A model generated the notes under the pieces. The model made no database searches. It saw nothing but the letters and a program-made list of their open reading frames with translations, and was not told the DNA's origin. Positions 26,742 to 59,599 of a DNA stretch of 64,000 bases are shown in pieces. Within the stretch, counting starts at the first letter, position 1. Each line of letters opens with the position of its first letter. The stretch is from a virus. Both the position numbers and the translations under genes were made by a program. Where the stretch lies: positions 26,979 through 90,978 of IMG/VR virus record IMGVR_UViG_3300028558_000022. One strand, written 5' to 3'.

Positions 26742-27245
26742 TCAGCTCCGGGGAGCTTCTTGATTACTGCTACCTTCGGTTGATTTCGCATTCTTGACCC
26801 TCTCAGCGACCCATGCGCTCAGCTCGTCGGCAACCTTGCCGTATACGCCCGGCGCCCGGTCGTCAATGAGATTCCCATTCGCTTGTGCGTCGAGAAGTAT
26901 TCCGAGACAGGCCCGTGCATGGGCTAGGTGATGTACACCGGAGTCCTTTGCCTTCTCTTCCTTCTCTGACCATGCAGAGATGTGGCGAAGGGCCGCGTCG
27001 ATATAAATTCGAGCGACAACGTGCTTTTCGCGCCAATTGCGGAAACCGTACTTGAGATCGCCGTCCAGCATTGCACAAGATTCGTGCGCCATTGCCACCG
27101 GGCAAACCTGCCCTAGTGGGACTTTCTTGATTCCGAGCAAGTCCTTGGGATTCGTTCCCGTTGCCTTGGACGTTGCTCCCGTAGCGGTTCGGGAGAGATT
27201 TGAACCGTGCTCTTTCTCCCAAGCCGTTCCATCTGCTAAACTCAT
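26742..27245 (-). CDS. dATP/dGTP diphosphohydrolase-domain protein (DUF5664)
   Basis: NPKD...KYGFRNWR...YIDAALRH...DSGVHHLAHA. Confidence 0.85.
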   Translation of the reverse strand: MSLADGTAWEKEHGSNLSRTATGATSKATGTNPKDLLGIKKVPLGQVCPVAMAHESCAMLDGDLKYGFRNWREKHVVARIYIDAALRHISAWSEKEEKAKDSGVHHLAHARACLGILLDAQANGNLIDDRAPGVYGKVADELSAWVAERVKNAKSTEGSSNQEAPRS

Positions 27246-53509: not shown

Positions 53510-53625
53510 TCATTGAGGGGAGTGCAAGCATACGGACTGGCCGGTCACATAGCTCACAAAATGCCAAACCACGTTGGCCGGATATGAGTAATCCACTCTC
53601 ACCGGTAACTCAGTTTGGCGCAAAC

Positions 53626-53983: not shown

Positions 53984-54583
53984 TTACAGACCTACAAAGA
54001 CGTTGATTTCCTTGTAGATTTTCTCCACTGGTAGGCCGTTCATCGGGTTACCCGAGCTGGAGATATTTCCCAGAGTGTTGTTAAACACCGGGTAAGATAC
54101 CTCAATCACGGTGTTGCCAACCGCCACACCGGTAATGACACCGGTAGCGGAAACGGTCGCAACGCTGGGATTCTGCGACCAGAAGGTCAGTGCGGCTGCA
54201 CCTTCAAGGGTTGCGGTACCCGCGTGCGTCTCGGAGACACCCGCAGCGTTGTCCACAGTCAGGGTCGTAGTGCTCGATGCCGTGACAATGAACGTACCGT
54301 TGTTCGCGCCAGTCGTGAAACCGGCGATTACAACTTCTCTGCCAACGAGAGCATTGCTCCCGCCGCCCGTGATGGTACCGGTGTACTGGGTCGTGCTACC
54401 ACTTGCGTTAGCAGCCGCGCTCAATACAAGAGCAGTTCCGGGGTCCGCGTTACCAGCGGAATCCTCAACCGAAGCGTTGATCTGATGAGTGGCAGTGCCA
54501 CCCAGCGACAACGACAGTGAGGTTGAATCGACGGCGATCTTTGTTGCCGTCCCAACTCCGTCAGTCTGAGCAGGATAAGTCAT
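53984..54583 (-). CDS. Capsid decoration-like protein with an Ig (Big_2) domain
   Basis: WSQNPSVATVSATGVITGVAVGNTVI; directly after the MCP. Confidence 0.7.
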   Translation of the reverse strand: MTYPAQTDGVGTATKIAVDSTSLSLSLGGTATHQINASVEDSAGNADPGTALVLSAAANASGSTTQYTGTITGGGSNALVGREVVIAGFTTGANNGTFIVTASSTTTLTVDNAAGVSETHAGTATLEGAAALTFWSQNPSVATVSATGVITGVAVGNTVIEVSYPVFNNTLGNISSSGNPMNGLPVEKIYKEINVFVGL

Positions 54584-54614
54584 TCTTTGTTTTCCTCAGT
54601 TTTGCTAATCGAAC

Positions 54615-54651
54615 AAAAGAGGCGCACCGGGTATCTAATCCAGTGCGCCTC
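54615..54651 (-). terminator. Terminator after the major capsid gene
   Basis: GAGGCGCACTGG-ATTAGATAC-CCGGTGCGCCTC-TTTT on the - strand. Confidence 0.75.
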
Positions 54652-54657
54652 GATTGC

Positions 54658-55689
54658 TTAGCTGATCGCGGAAGCCGCGTCGATCTCACGGATGCGGACC
54701 GTGGTGTCCGGGCCGAGCGAAGTCGTGAAGTGTACACGATAGCTCGTCCATCCGGGGATCAAGCCCTCGGGATCGGCAACAGTCGGCTCGGCGTTCTGCA
54801 CGATGTTGCAATTGATGTTCTGCCAATCACCGTCGCCGTACTCGGTGTCGCCCTGAGCACCCAGCTTAATGCTGAAGATGCCGTCGCGCCCGAAGATATA
54901 AGTACGCAGTGCCGTGAGGCCCGAGATGCTCTTATAGTTCGAGGTTGCCGTCACCTGATTGGTCTGGAAGAAGTGAACGCCGGAACCCGGAAGTTCGATC
55001 ATCTCCGTCAAATCAACCGAGATCAAGTCTTCCATCTTGGCCTGACCCACAGGGGTGTGCTTCAGGATGTCGATGGGCGAGTTGTTGGTCGTGTCAGCCA
55101 ACACGTCGCCAAGGGCGAACGGGTGGATCACACCGCAGAATGCCTTTGACGCCTCGTCGAACGGACGAACCGAACGACCGGCAAGGCTCTGGACCGAGTT
55201 ACGAATCTGATTCAAGCTCAGAGTCGTGAAGGTAGTCAGCGAAGACGCCGGGAGCTGGGTGAGCACGCTCGCGTCAACGGAGTTGGCGCCGTCAGCGGTT
55301 GCACGCACCAGACCGCTCAGGGTTTCGCCCAGACGGTACGACATTTCGCGAGCAACGTTCTCGACGGTGTTGTCAATGGCGGTCGCCAGAGACAGAGACG
55401 AGAAGTTTGCATAGTCGGCATATTCACCGATGGTCGCGGTCGTGTTCAGCACGCTAACCTGAATCGAGTTGCCGACCGTACCTTCCGTGGTCTGGGACTG
55501 GTTACCCGCCAACGGAACATACATGAACATCTCGTACTGGTTACCGGAGTTCTTCGGGAGATCAAGACGCTCAGAGCACGCTACGAAGGGAGTCTGTGCC
55601 TTGAGGTTTTCGCGGAACTTCTTGTCGTAGAACTTCACAGTAGACTGCGGAAGCTGCGACTGTCCGTTACCGGCAGGAGTATAACTCAT
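54658..55689 (-). CDS. Major capsid protein (N4-gp56-like, HK97 fold)
   Basis: 343 aa after the scaffold; FYDKK...LPKNSG...TEG...YADY...IHP...ADP...GW. Confidence 0.85.
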   Translation of the reverse strand: MSYTPAGNGQSQLPQSTVKFYDKKFRENLKAQTPFVACSERLDLPKNSGNQYEMFMYVPLAGNQSQTTEGTVGNSIQVSVLNTTATIGEYADYANFSSLSLATAIDNTVENVAREMSYRLGETLSGLVRATADGANSVDASVLTQLPASSLTTFTTLSLNQIRNSVQSLAGRSVRPFDEASKAFCGVIHPFALGDVLADTTNNSPIDILKHTPVGQAKMEDLISVDLTEMIELPGSGVHFFQTNQVTATSNYKSISGLTALRTYIFGRDGIFSIKLGAQGDTEYGDGDWQNINCNIVQNAEPTVADPEGLIPGWTSYRVHFTTSLGPDTTVRIREIDAASAIS

Positions 55690-55704
55690 TTGTTGTAATT
55701 CCTA

Positions 55705-55950
55705 ACTACAGCTAGTACGTCTATCCATTCCCTCCTCCCAGATAAGGAACATTGACGCTACCGCCCTCTATGTGACACAGCTCCACGCAACGGTAATCCG
55801 ACCGTTACGAGTAACTGACCGGTCAGGGACTCAGACCGGTGTTAACCTCGCACATGACTAGGGGATGCTGTACAGTAATCCGACTGCCAACACATCCAGA
55901 ACTTAAAAGGCCGAACTCTCCGGCTGTCACACCACTCGGTAGGTGTCACC
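55705..55950 (-). ncRNA. Candidate structured RNA in the scaffold-capsid intergenic region
   Basis: Nested long-range stems and two hairpins with the same UCGGAUUA apex. Confidence 0.55.
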
Positions 55951-55958
55951 ATTTTCGT

Positions 55959-57023
55959 TTAGCGACTCTTCGCGCGTCTGCGCTCAGCCGCTTCCTTTTC
56001 GAGTGCCTGTTCTTTCTTCGCGAAGTTCGGATCAGACATCAGGCGCCGTTTGTACTCGTCGGCGGGCATCGCGTTGATCGCGGCCAAACCGGTGTACTTG
56101 CGCTTCTGTCCATTCACTTCGACAATGTAGGTAATCTCGTCAGGATTGACCGCCGAACGTACCGGACCAATCTCTTCGGAGTTGTTCCGATTCAAACCGG
56201 TCGGGATACGTGGTACCGATACAGGCTCTTCTACAGGAGCGACTGCAACTGGAACCTCTACGACCGGCTCGGGAGCGGGTTCGTCCACTTGGACAGGCTC
56301 CGGTACCGGCTCAACGACCGGCTCGGGTTCAGGTTCTACATTCGAGTAGGTGAGCACCAGAACGGGCGGATCGATATTCTTGAGAGCCTCGTAAGCTCTC
56401 TGGAAGTTCTGCCTCGTAGGAGCAAGGTTCTTGCGGAGCATCCAACCGGTGATCGCGTCAGAGTTCTCTTTACAGACGACGTAATCGGAATTGGCTGCCT
56501 TGAACGCTTCCACTTCGATGCGAGCACGCTCATTGATACGATCCTGCTGCAACTCTGCAATCGTATCCGTCAAGACCTTGGGCTTCGCGCCCATCTTGGC
56601 CTCGAATAGAGTATCTGTCGCTTCGTCAAAACGCTCGGGATCGAGAATATCGCGAGAGAGTTGAATACGTTCCTCTGCCGAGAGGGTACGCGGCTTGAAA
56701 TCTACCGGCTCTTCAAATCGCTGAGCCTCATCGGGAACTTGCTCGTCATCAAGGATGCCGAGACGATTCTTTCGTGTCGCTTCCCGGAGCTTTCGGACCA
56801 AAAGCGTATTCTGTTCAGTCAGCTTTCCGGCAAGCTCTTCAGGCGTCGTGTACTTGATTACCTGCTTACCGCCGATAGGCCGTCCTGATTCGTCCGTGGG
56901 CTGATACTCGTAACGCAATTCGACAGGCGCAACCGGCGCCGGGACTTCAACTACAACCTGTTCCGGGGTTTCAATTGCGGGTGTATCCGCGCCCGGCTGA
57001 AGCTCAATTGCTTCAACGCTCAT
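55959..57023 (-). CDS. Capsid scaffolding protein
   Basis: Acidic with a Pro/Glu/Val-rich linker; lies between portal and MCP. Confidence 0.7.
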   Translation of the reverse strand: MSVEAIELQPGADTPAIETPEQVVVEVPAPVAPVELRYEYQPTDESGRPIGGKQVIKYTTPEELAGKLTEQNTLLVRKLREATRKNRLGILDDEQVPDEAQRFEEPVDFKPRTLSAEERIQLSRDILDPERFDEATDTLFEAKMGAKPKVLTDTIAELQQDRINERARIEVEAFKAANSDYVVCKENSDAITGWMLRKNLAPTRQNFQRAYEALKNIDPPVLVLTYSNVEPEPEPVVEPVPEPVQVDEPAPEPVVEVPVAVAPVEEPVSVPRIPTGLNRNNSEEIGPVRSAVNPDEITYIVEVNGQKRKYTGLAAINAMPADEYKRRLMSDPNFAKKEQALEKEAAERRRAKSR

Positions 57024-57418
57024 TCATCCTCCTCGATGATTTCAAACTCATTTGACAAATCGTCGTCCAAATCGCTTTGAGTGCTCGCTGGGGCGCCCAA
57101 ATCGATTGTGCCTTCTGTCACGTCAACCGGATCGCCGACCTTCGCTACTGCTGCCCTGAACGCCTCAACCTCGAAGTTGATGCGGTTCATAAAGGCTGTG
57201 TAGACCTGTGCGGCTGCCTTCGCAAGACGGTGATTTGCGACAATCGCTGCCTCGTTCTCTACCCCAGTGTTGATGAGTCCAACAATGAACTTGTCAACTT
57301 CGGAGCGAATGAGACGGTGAATGATCGGAAAACCGTTCGTGGCTACCGCGTGCGCGACTAAAGCGCGTTCGGTGTGATCCAGAACTACTTCCGGCTCAAA
57401 ACTTTTATGTGTTTCCAC
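57020..57418 (-). CDS. Hypothetical head-module protein
   Basis: Position after the portal. Confidence 0.55.
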   Translation of the reverse strand: METHKSFEPEVVLDHTERALVAHAVATNGFPIIHRLIRSEVDKFIVGLINTGVENEAAIVANHRLAKAAAQVYTAFMNRINFEVEAFRAAVAKVGDPVDVTEGTIDLGAPASTQSDLDDDLSNEFEIIEEDE

Positions 57419-57478: not shown

Positions 57479-59599
57479 CTAAACGACCTCAGGCATAGAA
57501 CCTTGGAGTCCCGTGAGACTCGGTACGCCCTCTGCGGCTTCGCTTTGCCCGTTTTGGCGGAATGCGTTGACCACAAGATCGCGTTTGATTCGGTTATCAG
57601 CGGATTGCTGATCCAGTGCGGATTTCTGCTGGAACTTCTGCTGATTAGTCTGAGCTGTGATGGCGGCCTTCGACTGAGCTTGAGCGGCTTGTGACTTTGC
57701 TTGCCGGTCTTGCTTCATCTGATCCGTCATCGGCTTGATGATGTCGTTCTTGTCTTTCCACTCTGACGCTTCGATCCACATAGCGACGATGACTTTCCAG
57801 TCGATGTACTCGCCGTTGATGTCCGCAAGCTGATCGACAATTTGCGGGTTCTCAAGAATCTGAGTCAACAGCGTCATTGACTGAGCCATTGTTCGCTTGG
57901 CGGCAAGTGCCGCGCCCGCAAGAACCTCATACGAGATACGCGCGTCGTGGTATGCCTGAAGATCAAGCTCGTAATCCTTGCCCATCTCGTCGCCGAGGAT
58001 GGCAAAGATTTCCGCATCAGAAATGTAGGACATTACCAGCTCATCCAAGATGTACAGGAATGGGCTGAATACTTGTTCGATGAAGTTGTCAAGCGGACCG
58101 TCAAGACGCGTCGCGCTGGCGGCCCCAAGTTGGGCAGCTCCGCCCGCTGTACGACCCATCGAAGTTCGCGGCCCGGCTGTCGAGCCTTGCACAAGTGCTT
58201 GGTCGGCGCCGGAGCTACTCTCTGTTGCCTTCTCGGACTCCGCGAGTGCGTTCCACACTTCGCCGGGAATCTTCGGAATGTCGAGCAACTTGTATGCTTT
58301 GTCAACCTCTCCGTCAACCGTGAGAATCTTACCGAGACCGGTACGGATCATCTGCGTCGGTGCGTTTGTGTCACGCTTACGCAGGTAAACCGGGTTCACA
58401 CCGAATGACAAGAGTTTGAGAATTGCGTTGATAGTCCCTTGATCGACTCGTTGGTTCTGTCCAACGATCAGGCCAAGGCCCATGCCGTAAAACGCCTTCG
58501 GACGGTTCCACCAATTAGCAGAAAGGAACGGAATCTGATTGAAGGGGTTCTTACCGGAGAAGATCACATGATTACGGTCAATAACCATAATCTTGCGGCC
58601 CTTGTCCCAGTATTCCAAAACCTCCATCTTCTTAAAGAGAAGGTCCGGGGTCACTTCAATGTTCACATCTTCTGAATGGTGAACGGCGCCATTGGCGTAG
58701 GTCGTTTGATCTGTGCCGAGAATTTCAGGGCCGTCCGACTGGGTGGGAGGCATCCACCATTTCTTGAGTTCCTCTTCGCCCTTCGGGAGCTTCCAACCTT
58801 CAAGGTCGGGATGATCCGGCTTTTTCTCTCTCAGCTCTTCAAGTGACTTGCGAATCCTGTCGAGTTGGTAGAAGTCCATGTAGCGGACATCCACAACGAA
58901 ATCAGCATGTCGAATATCTCCGACATTGCACTTCGGATCGACCAGAACCTTGTCGAGAGGTCTGCTTTCAAAGAACGGACGCGGTACGAAACGAACCGAT
59001 TTCTTAATGTTAGGTATCTCGTCCTTCGGAATCTGTACCGTGTCCTGTGCGTCAACCGGCCCGGACCGCAGGGTCGAGACCGTCGCTTCGCGTTTCTTTG
59101 TAACAACCTCTTGAAAATCGATACCCCACTTCCAAATGCCCGTACCAAATACGGCCATCTGTTCGAGGCCCCACTTTGTCTCTGTTTTGAACTTGCAGGA
59201 ATCCAGCAAGTACGAGAAGACGGTCGTCTTTGCGTCAACGACTTTCTGACTCGTTCCGGGACGTGGGCGCAGAACCATCGGGGGATCGGCGTAGAACAAA
59301 CCTTTGTAGAGTTGCGGTACAACCGCATTCGCTACCTTGGCAACCGTGAACCGCTGAACATTTGGTTCGAGGATGTATGTGTTCTCGTAAACCGACAACG
59401 GACGCGGCGATTGATACAAAAGATCAGCGTCGCGCCAAAGAAGGTTCCACTGTTTGTTTGAAATGTATGACTCGGACTTCCGAGCGGCACCAACGACCAG
59501 AGCGAGATCGGCACTGGCGGTCTTTAACTGTCCGCCCTTTCCGTAGTCCTCAGGCGTAAGGGACCGGCTCTGACTGCCGTCCGTCTCTGGAAGTGACAT
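57479..59599 (-). CDS. Portal protein (podovirus type)
   Basis: 706 aa after the terminase; GTGIWK, FYGMG, RTAGG motifs; Gln-rich barrel-like tail. Confidence 0.85.
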   Translation of the reverse strand: MSLPETDGSQSRSLTPEDYGKGGQLKTASADLALVVGAARKSESYISNKQWNLLWRDADLLYQSPRPLSVYENTYILEPNVQRFTVAKVANAVVPQLYKGLFYADPPMVLRPRPGTSQKVVDAKTTVFSYLLDSCKFKTETKWGLEQMAVFGTGIWKWGIDFQEVVTKKREATVSTLRSGPVDAQDTVQIPKDEIPNIKKSVRFVPRPFFESRPLDKVLVDPKCNVGDIRHADFVVDVRYMDFYQLDRIRKSLEELREKKPDHPDLEGWKLPKGEEELKKWWMPPTQSDGPEILGTDQTTYANGAVHHSEDVNIEVTPDLLFKKMEVLEYWDKGRKIMVIDRNHVIFSGKNPFNQIPFLSANWWNRPKAFYGMGLGLIVGQNQRVDQGTINAILKLLSFGVNPVYLRKRDTNAPTQMIRTGLGKILTVDGEVDKAYKLLDIPKIPGEVWNALAESEKATESSSGADQALVQGSTAGPRTSMGRTAGGAAQLGAASATRLDGPLDNFIEQVFSPFLYILDELVMSYISDAEIFAILGDEMGKDYELDLQAYHDARISYEVLAGAALAAKRTMAQSMTLLTQILENPQIVDQLADINGEYIDWKVIVAMWIEASEWKDKNDIIKPMTDQMKQDRQAKSQAAQAQSKAAITAQTNQQKFQQKSALDQQSADNRIKRDLVVNAFRQNGQSEAAEGVPSLTGLQGSMPEVV

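Follow-up and report, generated by a model that had tools for sequence, protein, structure and literature searches.

In phage P22, output of the scaffold gene is reportedly autoregulated after transcription. To our knowledge no RNA operator has been defined for it, and work on this phage in the 1980s left open how tailed phages set the amounts of scaffold and capsid protein post-transcriptionally, a question for which we know of no defined RNA signal to this day. Post-transcriptional autoregulation of the P22 scaffold gene is named in two 1985 titles (Casjens & Adams; Wyckoff & Casjens) cited in PMC5529062. We describe here a strongly covarying RNA family, new to Rfam, which lies in the head operon of widespread soil podophages that infect Acidobacteriota. 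It has a cultured member, Tunturi_3 on Tunturiibacter psychrotolerans, which makes the question directly testable. In sister phages that lack the leader, this fold is written into the scaffold coding sequence, a natural experiment in overprinting that narrows the possible mechanisms, since the module has to function within sequence that is being translated.

The gap before the capsid gene and its RNA

The locus was found in a window of 64,000 nucleotides (the whole stretch analysed, positions 26,979 to 90,978 of IMG/VR virus record IMGVR_UViG_3300028558_000022), to which all coordinates refer; the features described are on its - strand. The major capsid gene (54658-55689, 343 aa, phrog_1357) is preceded by a 354-aa ORF (55959-57023, stop codon 55959-55961) with an Arg-rich, basic C-terminus and no Pfam or PHROG match, a putative scaffold gene identified from position and composition alone. 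Between the two genes lie 269 nt (55690-55958), and the preliminary description was right to single out this gap as long for a head operon. The capsid start AUG (55689-55687) follows a ribosome-binding site AGGAA (55703-55699), and AAGGA is found 8-12 nt 5' of the capsid ATG in all relatives. At the other end, after the scaffold stop codon, is a spacer (55898-55958) that is not conserved and lies outside the element; it includes a hairpin GUGACACC...GGUGUGAC and, according to a terminator scan, a terminator-like hairpin GCCGGAGAGUUCGGC with a U-run (55924-55900), and it is missing in loci where a GNAT gene abuts the element. Two pairings originally assigned to the RNA, GCCG/CGGC and ACACC/GGTGT, belong to this spacer, the former being the terminator-like hairpin after the scaffold gene. 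A promoter scan of the gap revealed no promoter-like site, and neither scan placed a promoter or terminator of its own on the flanks of the conserved part.

Encoded in the gap is an RNA of about 180 nt with a conserved fold (about 55717-55897, - strand, capsid-sense), the ~240 nt first proposed being too long. From its 5' end a long hairpin, P0, leads to a three-way junction of P1, P2 and P3, and then to a 3' hairpin with a GGGA tetraloop, 40-50 nt 5' of the true ribosome-binding site. An invariant loop, UCGGAUUA (core hexaloop CGGAUU), present in 41/41 leaders, caps both P0 (55876-55883) and P3 (55794-55801), exactly where twin hairpins had been noticed.

P0 (hairpin A, 55863-55897; helices 1 and 2 of the covariance-model alignment) has an outer stem, GGAUGU 55897-55892 / GCAUCC 55868-55863, followed by an internal loop and an inner stem, GCAG 55887-55884 / CUGU 55875-55872; its helices are paired in 88.6% and 95% of cells, with compensatory changes in 10/10 pairs. 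A C-rich linker in conserved alignment columns, CCCUAGU (55856-55862), with a nearly invariant CC, connects P0 to P1. Tentatively, this CC may pair with GAGG of the junction strand: RNAalifold joins the linker CC to GG, and in leaderless relatives the pairing is extended to a 7-bp hairpin, CACCUGU...ACAGGUG. The three-way junction (55770-55855) is closed by P1 (helix 3; AUGUG 55855-55851 / CACAU 55774-55770), which is about 97.7-97.8% paired and covaries, for example as UGUG/CACA, GCG/CGC and GGC/GCC. The junction strand J1/2, CGAGGUUAAC (55841-55850), is conserved, and its core (U)GAGG, unpaired in the model, is nearly invariant (G58 invariant, G59 at least 90% conserved); J2/3 and J3/1 are only 0-3 nt long.

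The middle hairpin P2 (55818-55840; helix 4; ACCGGUC 55840-55834 / GACCGGU 55824-55818) is 95.3% paired, with compensatory changes in 7/7 pairs. The core AGUCC of its loop, UGAGUCCCU (55833-55825), is complementary to GGAUU of a twin loop; P2 loops contain such a complementary 5-mer in 22/41 cases and a central A-A mismatch in 17/41, and contact between the P2 loop and a twin loop is a possibility that this complementarity raises. The P3 arm with hairpin B (55778-55817; helices 5 and 6) comprises an outer stem, CAGUU 55817-55813 / AGCUG 55782-55778, and an inner stem, CGUAACGG 55809-55802 / CCGUUGCG 55793-55786, with the invariant UCGGAUUA at 55801-55794; the helices are 87.8% and 82.2% paired and 13/13 pairs show compensatory changes. 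Beyond the junction, a purine-rich 3' tail in conserved columns, AGAGGGC (55763-55769; GAAGGC or AAGGAC in relatives), precedes a 3' accessory domain (55717-55758) in which helix P5, GCGUC 55758-55754 / GACGU 55721-55717, as judged by eye and MFE only, encloses hairpin P4 (55751-55726). P4 consists of a pyrimidine 5' strand, the GGGA tetraloop (55739-55736) and a GGAGG-containing 3' strand. RNAalifold finds compensatory changes in 5/6 of its pairs, and single-sequence folds show P4 in most leaders and the enclosing helix in many; the whole domain is missing from the most divergent members, L099 and L083. P4 was considered as an anti-SD switch and rejected, its pyrimidine strand not being generally complementary to the true SD.

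Among the helices listed in the preliminary description, comparison upholds GGATG/CATCC (outer part of P0), ATGTG/CACAT (P1), ACCGGTC/GACCGGT (P2) and both twin stems. CGAG/CTCG and TAAC/GTTA, by which it lengthened the middle hairpin, pair at background level, in 32-34% of relatives, and these bases lie instead in the conserved junction strand and P3 (87.5% paired). CTAGT/ACTAG was seen only in the window and its closest relative.

Conservation and linkage to the capsid gene

Taken singly, the window sequence offers no more than chance would: it is not unusually stable (MFE z = -0.76), nor is its count of the twin-loop 8-mer unusual. Across homologues the signal is overwhelmingly more than chance. 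When 41 distinct homologues were aligned to a covariance model built from the window sequence alone, 90.6% of cells were paired, versus 62.2% in shuffled and 27-45% in slid controls, compensatory changes were found in 35/35 pairs, and double-change cells numbered 363 vs 94. RNAalifold applied to a plain MAFFT alignment of 25 leaders, a type of alignment that mis-registers the P0-outer and P3-outer helices, yielded four hairpins with 20/23 pairs compensatory. G-U cells (95) outnumber A-C cells (42), which favours the capsid-sense strand. This conservation upstream of homologous capsid genes, in which the two hairpins covary as copies of one module across the 41 homologues, bears out what had been surmised from a single sequence.

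Searching 54500-57200 against Rfam 15 with cmscan, at E values up to 10, gave nothing in the gap and one chance match inside the capsid ORF; four relatives gave nothing at the gathering threshold. The twin-hairpin family is absent from Rfam and from the literature searched, in line with the first impression of a structured capsid-sense RNA of no known family. ARAGORN reported 0 tRNA genes in 55600-56000. Nor does a conserved small ORF account for the gap: across 37 leaders stops occur in all three sense frames, and the longest ORF (6-66 aa) varies in length, frame and position.

Each genome has a single copy of the element; ~60 IMG/VR contigs, as well as Tunturiibacter phage Tunturi_3, have it immediately before the capsid gene. 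A same-strand capsid homologue follows in 98 of 105 element-bearing loci, typically 23-66 nt past the model end. The remaining loci are on cut contigs or have a capsid match that begins only a long way downstream; L065 has a homing-type endonuclease ORF in the stretch between element and capsid match. A GNAT gene is inserted upstream of the element in 24/42 loci, and never between element and capsid gene. Since the element stays with the capsid start despite this insertion, keeping its position just before it across loci, it behaves as a capsid-mRNA leader, as proposed at the outset along with a conjectural part in setting the scaffold:capsid ratio.

Contigs from three rhizosphere metatranscriptome studies cover leaders of close relatives, and one bridges into the capsid gene, which is consistent with transcription, DNA carry-over being possible. 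In the four metatranscriptome runs, 55892-55978 and most of the scaffold gene are without coverage, and the contigs from two studies stop at 55884/55886. Since these are only assembled contigs, from divergent relatives, such ends would hint weakly, if at all, at an RNA 5' end near P0 and do not count as evidence for one.

Beyond the leader, a genome-wide scan for NGGATT-hexaloop hairpins returned the two leader hairpins and one chance-level match, ~3 being expected, which indicates no wider regulon in this genome. The capsid protein was found in 0/401 sampled Acidobacteriota genomes, and no host genome could be tied to the phage. A scan of genome contigs for the twin 10-mer gave 120 matches, none with the element; these are unrelated repeats, REP-like palindromes and a CRISPR repeat. 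Strong intrinsic terminators are present 3' of the capsid gene in most relatives, in leader-bearing and leaderless clades alike. The 16S-790-loop terminator has a loop unique to this phage among 77 distinct relatives.

The module within the scaffold ORF of leaderless phages

In the capsid tree, leader-bearing and leaderless phages form the two sides of one branch. In a finding not foreshadowed in the preliminary description, leaderless sister phages have two NGGAUU-loop hairpins (stems of up to 11 bp) and a P2-like hairpin within the scaffold ORF, 220-390 nt before the capsid start and in translated sequence; the scaffold genes of leader-bearing phages have no such hairpins. The leader model matches these scaffold ORFs over its full length (L076, E = 1.5e-8; L044, E = 6.5e-5), and the embedded copies keep the same GUGCGUGAGG string as J1/2. 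The embedded stems covary, with complementary flanking codon pairs (GCT..AGC, AGC..GCT, AGT..ACT, GTT..AAC, CCC..GGG): in a MAFFT alignment 95.7% of cells are paired, versus 66.5% when shuffled, and 14/15 pairs are compensatory. The loop motif is encoded in two reading frames, as xRIx or as PGLG. Together these features show the hairpin to be the unit under selection and the scaffold linker to be selected at the RNA level. A few embedded copies have CGCAUU or CGAAUU loops, which speaks somewhat against a factor that reads the loops, as its recognition rule would be looser there than in the leader.

Possible functions and comparison with known systems

The reading we tentatively prefer, while holding it somewhat short of probable, is that the module acts in cis on the late head mRNA: a trans factor would recognise the twin loops and so tune capsid (and scaffold) output. 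The leader RNA would be the cis part of the late scaffold-capsid message, and its two identical loops on covarying stems would be docking sites for the factor, most simply a dimeric or repeat-binding protein; a phage protein (unassembled scaffold, with its Arg-rich C-terminus, or capsid protein) is more likely to fill this role than a host protein. Binding would alter translation or lifetime, or both, of the capsid (and scaffold) message, thereby tuning head-protein output after transcription in the way reported for the P22 scaffold gene. The junction, P2 and P4/P5 would hold the twin loops in fixed geometry, and may shield the capsid message on its 5' side as well. Against this, embedded copies are translated, and ribosomes would strip bound protein; the 220-390 nt separation in the leaderless clade makes direct block of the capsid ribosome-binding site impossible, and even in the leader 110-190 nt separate the twin loops from the start codon, a distance too great for simple occlusion. 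The invariant loops could equally make RNA-RNA tertiary contacts, with the P2 loop for example. A bolder form of the idea, speculative and in our view unlikely, is an assembly-feedback sensor: the GGAUU loops would read free head protein, a small molecule or an infection-state signal and throttle head-protein synthesis, a device important enough to have survived a move between overprinted (scaffold linker codons) and free-standing states. If true, no RNA operator for capsid-assembly feedback would have been defined in a tailed phage before this one, and it would be a rarity in another respect, a single structured RNA family that occurs within an ORF as well as outside one.

The fold might act with no protein to read it, by enhancing translation, marking a processing site or stabilising the message at its 5' end. 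The polycistronic late transcript would be cut, or would start, just 5' of P0, the fold would shield the capsid message from 5'-end-dependent decay, and the capsid mRNA would outlast the scaffold part, giving more capsid than scaffold protein. Stem-loop stabilisers at 5' ends are well established (ompA, the T7 gene 10 leader), the element is always 5' of the capsid gene, metatranscriptome contigs of two studies cover leader and capsid gene together, and close to the ribosome-binding site P4 has its pyrimidine strand paired with one containing GGAGG; in the leaderless clade, cutting at the embedded copy would inactivate the scaffold mRNA and leave a structured 5' end on the capsid part. A stabiliser, however, needs no two invariant 8-nt loops and no invariant junction strand while every stem has changed, and with no promoter-like site in the gap we think this explanation an unlikely one. 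Much the same features could be recruited for a riboswitch-like sensor of a ligand or condition, with the junction and its invariant unpaired bases as aptamer and P4/P5 as expression platform for the capsid gene: a three-way junction with loop-loop contact is the purine-riboswitch layout, and here J1/2 is conserved, two arms could kiss (AGUCC with GGAUU, 22/41) and P4 pairs an anti-SD-like with an SD-like strand. That is very doubtful, given that no Rfam riboswitch matches even at E = 10, that the mismatch of the P4 pyrimidine strand with the true SD, noted above, applies here too, that P2 and P3 are very different in length, that L099 and L083 dispense with the 3' domain, and that one clade has the module within a translated ORF, at a great distance from any ribosome-binding site.

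Conserved loops on variable stems are equally the pattern of boxB, and in both clades the module stands upstream of the post-capsid terminator, a strong one in most relatives; nascent nut- or put-like hairpins might load a factor or bind RNA polymerase and allow read-through of that terminator into the tail genes. Such antitermination is rather improbable with a hexaloop/octaloop in place of a GNRA-like pentaloop, no boxA-like conserved string 5' of the hairpins in the leader alignments, no N-like gene identified, and one whole clade bearing in a translated ORF what in known nut/put RNAs is untranslated. A module that works both coding-embedded and non-coding also fits an RNA excised from the mRNA to act in trans, in head assembly or packaging like phi29 pRNA or as a host-factor decoy, and its compact three-way-junction fold, pRNA-like size and, in the window, the terminator-like hairpin just upstream are in keeping with this. 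But the conserved part has no promoter or terminator of its own around it and its 3' end leads straight to the ribosome-binding site of the capsid gene, the twin loops share one sequence and are neither self-complementary nor mutually complementary as a pRNA ring needs, and the single copy is strictly linked to the capsid start; we give the notion little credence. The GGA in both twin loops, in P4 and in the SD brings to mind host CsrA/RsmA, a dimer of which could bind the GGA loops and the GGA-containing ribosome-binding site and repress or activate capsid translation. It would be surprising to find CsrA the reader here: the UCGGAUUA / CGGAUU loop of the 41 leaders departs from the A(N)GGA consensus and varies far less than CsrA sites do, embedded CGCAUU or CGAAUU loops are without GGA, and PF02599 (CsrA), though present in 34/201 sampled Acidobacteriota genomes, was not found in the other 167/201 or in the phage. 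Hardly credible, finally, is a signal in single-stranded DNA, an origin, priming or packaging site, even though rolling-circle origins and hairpin promoters likewise have a conserved loop on a variable stem and ori and pac sites are commonly embedded in ORFs; the multi-helix junction and the excess of G-U over A-C cells, the fixed orientation and distance to the capsid start, and presence in RNA libraries speak against it, and nothing ties the head operon to initiation of replication or packaging.

Set beside described RNAs, the leader resembles each in part. Like the T7 gene 10 leader and the ompA stabiliser it is a structured 5' region that precedes the protein made in greatest abundance; they, however, are simple short hairpins whose 5' end is mapped, and the present fold extends over 180 nt with several helices, invariant loops and unmapped ends. 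Like phi29 pRNA it is a phage-encoded three-way-junction RNA of ~150-170 nt genetically tied to head assembly, but pRNA is transcribed independently and forms its ring through two loops complementary to each other, in contrast to the identical loops and continuity with the capsid mRNA found in this phage, which is not phi29-like. With purine riboswitches it has in common the P1-P2-P3 junction, the conserved junction strand and possibly interacting terminal loops, and differs in lacking an Rfam match, in its near absence of J2/3 and J3/1, in a P3 about twice the length of P2 and in an extra upstream hairpin with the same loop as P3. Lambda nut boxB and HK022 put are also conserved-loop, variable-stem hairpins, two per unit, upstream of terminators; they differ in loop type, in association with boxA and an N-like protein, and in being untranslated.

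The iron-responsive element (IRE) and the E. coli thrS operator come closer to the preferred reading of a factor-read module: a frozen apical loop on a variable stem, present in multiple copies and in different mRNA contexts, and, for thrS, two look-alike hairpins read by a dimer, an analogy of logic only. The IRE is eukaryotic, with a loop of different sequence and size, and the thrS hairpins mimic a 7-nt anticodon loop, one of them abutting the SD, in contrast to 6/8-nt loops more than 100 nt from the start codon. As for P22, its scaffold gene and the putative one here share no detectable sequence family, and in the present phages it is the RNA that is defined and the regulation that is inferred, the element being tied to the capsid start and not to the scaffold start. 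P22 is nonetheless a podovirus with the same gene order of portal, scaffold and capsid; here the RNA signal lies in or next to a scaffold gene whose product has a basic C-terminus, and head-protein output would, as we propose, likewise be set after transcription.

Gene order and relatives of the capsid gene

All genes around the element, which lies at about 55717-55897, are on the - strand. The sequence is the last 64 kb, at the 3' end, of an IMG/VR virus record of 90,978 bp, and the order is portal (57479-59599, a SU10_portal match), a 132-aa ORF, a 354-aa ORF without family match (55959-57023), a gap of 269 nt, the major capsid gene (54658-55689; phrog_1357) and a gene for an Ig-domain protein. 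We call the 354-aa ORF a putative scaffold gene only for its place in this order, a variable linker rich in Pro, Val and Glu, and a C-terminus that is basic; in the relatives too these proteins end in an Arg-rich tail (e.g. ...EKEAAERRRAKSR) and share the motifs VPSGL and AMPxxEYKxRL. Among named phages, the nearest is Tunturiibacter phage Tunturi_3, a podovirus of 97.6 kb with a tundra-soil Acidobacteriota host; its capsid protein is 88% identical.

The twin hairpins and long gap of the preliminary description are indeed present. Taken alone, the sequence is unremarkable: the minimum free energy of the gap is merely 0.76 sd below that of shuffles, the window shows no excess of the twin-loop 8-mer, ARAGORN detected no tRNA in the element, and Rfam returned no match, even at E = 10. 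Nor does a conserved small ORF explain the gap, no frame being open across homologues. The case for the element rests on comparison.

A back-translated scan of IMG/VR yielded 272 capsid relatives, and 80 loci were retained. About half have a gap of 180-385 nt 5' of the capsid gene, containing two copies of TCGGATTA spaced 74-87 nt apart and at fixed distances from the capsid ATG; in the remaining half the gap is just 13-24 nt. Scanning for the twin 10-mers matched 62 viral contigs, in all of which nhmmer found the whole element, and gave only unrelated repeats in bacterial genomes: the 10-mer GTCGGATTAC stands at the start of a CRISPR repeat of 37 nt in a MAG of the Acidobacteriota (Pyrinomonadaceae; L300:3730-4072) and lies within REP-like palindromes of several Proteobacteria (L255 and many Marinimicrobium, Marinobacter and Janthinobacterium loci). 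As the phage element is absent from all of them, we count these matches as false positives.

Of the 105 loci that bear the element, 98 have a capsid homologue downstream in the same orientation, usually 23-66 nt past the profile end; in the others the contig is cut or the capsid match begins far downstream. A GNAT acetyltransferase gene (140-160 aa; e.g. L001:7261-7686, gp5 of Tunturi_3, and L065:1670-2098) is inserted between scaffold gene and leader in 24 of the 42 loci with a leader and in none of those without one; it is absent from the present genome. The element has kept its position before the capsid gene despite this upstream insertion and despite insertions downstream. In locus L065 an Endonuclease_7 ORF (PF02945; 2340-3000) lies in the stretch between element and capsid match, splitting the capsid between residues ~22 and 23. 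Interrupted capsid genes occur in many relatives, with splits near residue 52 in L095 and at 189/190 in L130, and others in L037, L043, L052, L053 and L078. The string GATGCGATAGTCCGACC, which we take to resemble a group I intron core, stands 5' of the downstream capsid exon and, in L098, L202 and L215, after the capsid stop; Rfam called no intron at its gathering threshold.

Fold and covariation of the leader

With 25 leaders aligned by MAFFT alone, RNAalifold gave four hairpins, with compensatory changes in 20 of 23 pairs. Inspection suggested longer-range helices, which MAFFT mis-registers; we therefore combined the proposed structure with a single sequence, that of the window, in a covariance model and aligned the relatives to it with Infernal, obtaining 41 distinct sequences. 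Paired cells amounted to 90.6%, against 62.2% on shuffling and 27-45% with partners slid, figures which lean towards the model to which the alignment was fitted, though the margin is large and the hairpins had been found model-free. All 35 pairs show compensatory changes, and double-change cells number 363 vs 94. G-U cells exceed A-C cells (95 vs 42), favouring the capsid-sense strand as the one that folds.

The fold begins with P0, a long hairpin interrupted by an internal loop; a C-rich linker joins it to P1, which closes a three-way junction comprising a conserved single strand, (U)GAGGNAA, the hairpin P2 with its loop RAGWCCYU, and the long arm P3. UCGGAUUA caps both P0 and P3. Downstream, most members carry P4—a pyrimidine strand, a GGGA tetraloop and a GGAGG strand—often enclosed by a helix P5, and then an ordinary AAGGA ribosome-binding site. 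Because P4 and P5 are missing from the most divergent members, L099 and L083, we consider P0 and the junction to be the core. Two pairings proposed earlier, CTAGT/ACTAG and CGAG/CTCG with TAAC/GTTA, are not conserved across relatives, and the two most upstream hairpins proposed turn out to belong to a variable spacer. This spacer contains a terminator-like hairpin, GCCGGAGAGUUCGGC with a U-run (55900-55924, -), immediately past the scaffold gene and just ahead of the conserved leader; L003 and L019, where scaffold gene and leader also adjoin, have similar ones. Should it terminate, the capsid gene would need either a start of its own or read-through.

An intrinsic terminator follows the capsid gene (54619-54651, -) and is conserved in relatives. 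Its loop here, GGAUUAGAUACC, is the 16S rRNA 790-loop sequence; of 77 distinct relatives only this phage has it, and the likeness looks incidental.

Copies of the motif within scaffold genes

A search for stray copies located the motif in leaderless relatives, within the scaffold ORF. Site 1, coding for xAGLLx, forms NGGAUU-hexaloop hairpins with stems of 5-11 bp (11 bp in L028). Site 2, 103-135 nt downstream, is a hairpin that carries this loop on a stem of 3-7 bp; the loop is read either as xxN CGG ATT Nxx (ARIS, SRIA, SRIT, VRIN) or, shifted one base, as CC-C GGA TTG GG (PGLG); the codons flanking the loop are always mutually complementary (GCT/AGC, AGC/GCT, AGT/ACT, GTT/AAC, CCC/GGG). Between the sites lies a P2-like hairpin with a covarying stem (GGUUCC/GGAACC, GGCUCC/GGAGCC, GGUGCC/GGCACC) and, in several leaderless phages, GUGCGUGAGG, a string of the leader's P1-J1/2. 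The module falls exactly in the linker between VPSGL and AMPxxEYKxRL, which is hypervariable at the protein level.

Unbiased MAFFT and RNAalifold analysis of 17 such segments recovered all three hairpins, with 95.7% paired cells (66.5% shuffled, 23-46% slid) and compensatory changes in 14 of 15 pairs. A further covariance model, this time based on the 41 leaders, matched leaderless scaffold coding regions full-length in L076 (E = 1.5e-8) and L044 (E = 6.5e-5), with five more scaffold-region matches at E 0.0025-0.03. Scaffold genes of leader-bearing phages, the present one included, contain no NGGAUU-type hairpins, and a genome-wide scan found no further hexaloop hairpins of this type beyond chance; a small intergenic hairpin, GAGU-GGAUU-ACUC (53578-53605, -), has a pentaloop and is outside the pattern. 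In a quick, unrooted capsid-protein tree, 28 leader-bearing and 33 leaderless phages are separated by a single branch (SH-aLRT 93). From this split and the embedded copies we infer one RNA family with two states: in one it overprints the scaffold linker, in the other it stands free in the capsid leader. This dual coding and non-coding existence is what is unusual about the family, and it is well supported. Rfam has no family for the element, the Tunturi paper does not mention it, and our literature search found no paper on such a motif; we rate it a new family of a known general kind, the cis-acting structured mRNA element.

Possible role of the element

Assembled contigs of four rhizosphere metatranscriptomes are consistent with transcription of the leader: contigs from three studies cover that of close relatives (55713-55863, 55689-55884, 55718-55886), and one spans the capsid start (55261-55737).

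The element's persistence before the capsid gene, with insertions on both sides, argues for a role in cis on the capsid message. Since the two loops have stayed invariant while every stem has changed, and the sister clade reuses the hairpin in another context, the twin loops are probably read by something. A protein is the more likely reader; a loop-loop contact between P2 and GGAUU is possible, as 22 of 41 leaders have a P2 loop complementary to this sequence and 17 more fall short of it only by one A-A mismatch in the centre. CsrA is a weak candidate for that protein: the loop departs from the A(N)GGA consensus, some embedded copies have no GGA, and CsrA is absent from the phage and present in just 34 of 201 sampled Acidobacteriota genomes.

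As to mechanism, the embedded module would work within a translated ORF, 220-390 nt ahead of the capsid start, which makes simple occlusion of the ribosome-binding site, a classical nut site or a classical riboswitch unlikely. A better fit would be an effect on how long the message lasts or how it is processed, or a roadblock coupled to head assembly. The nearest precedent for the element is the scaffold gene of P22, which is reportedly autoregulated post-transcriptionally.
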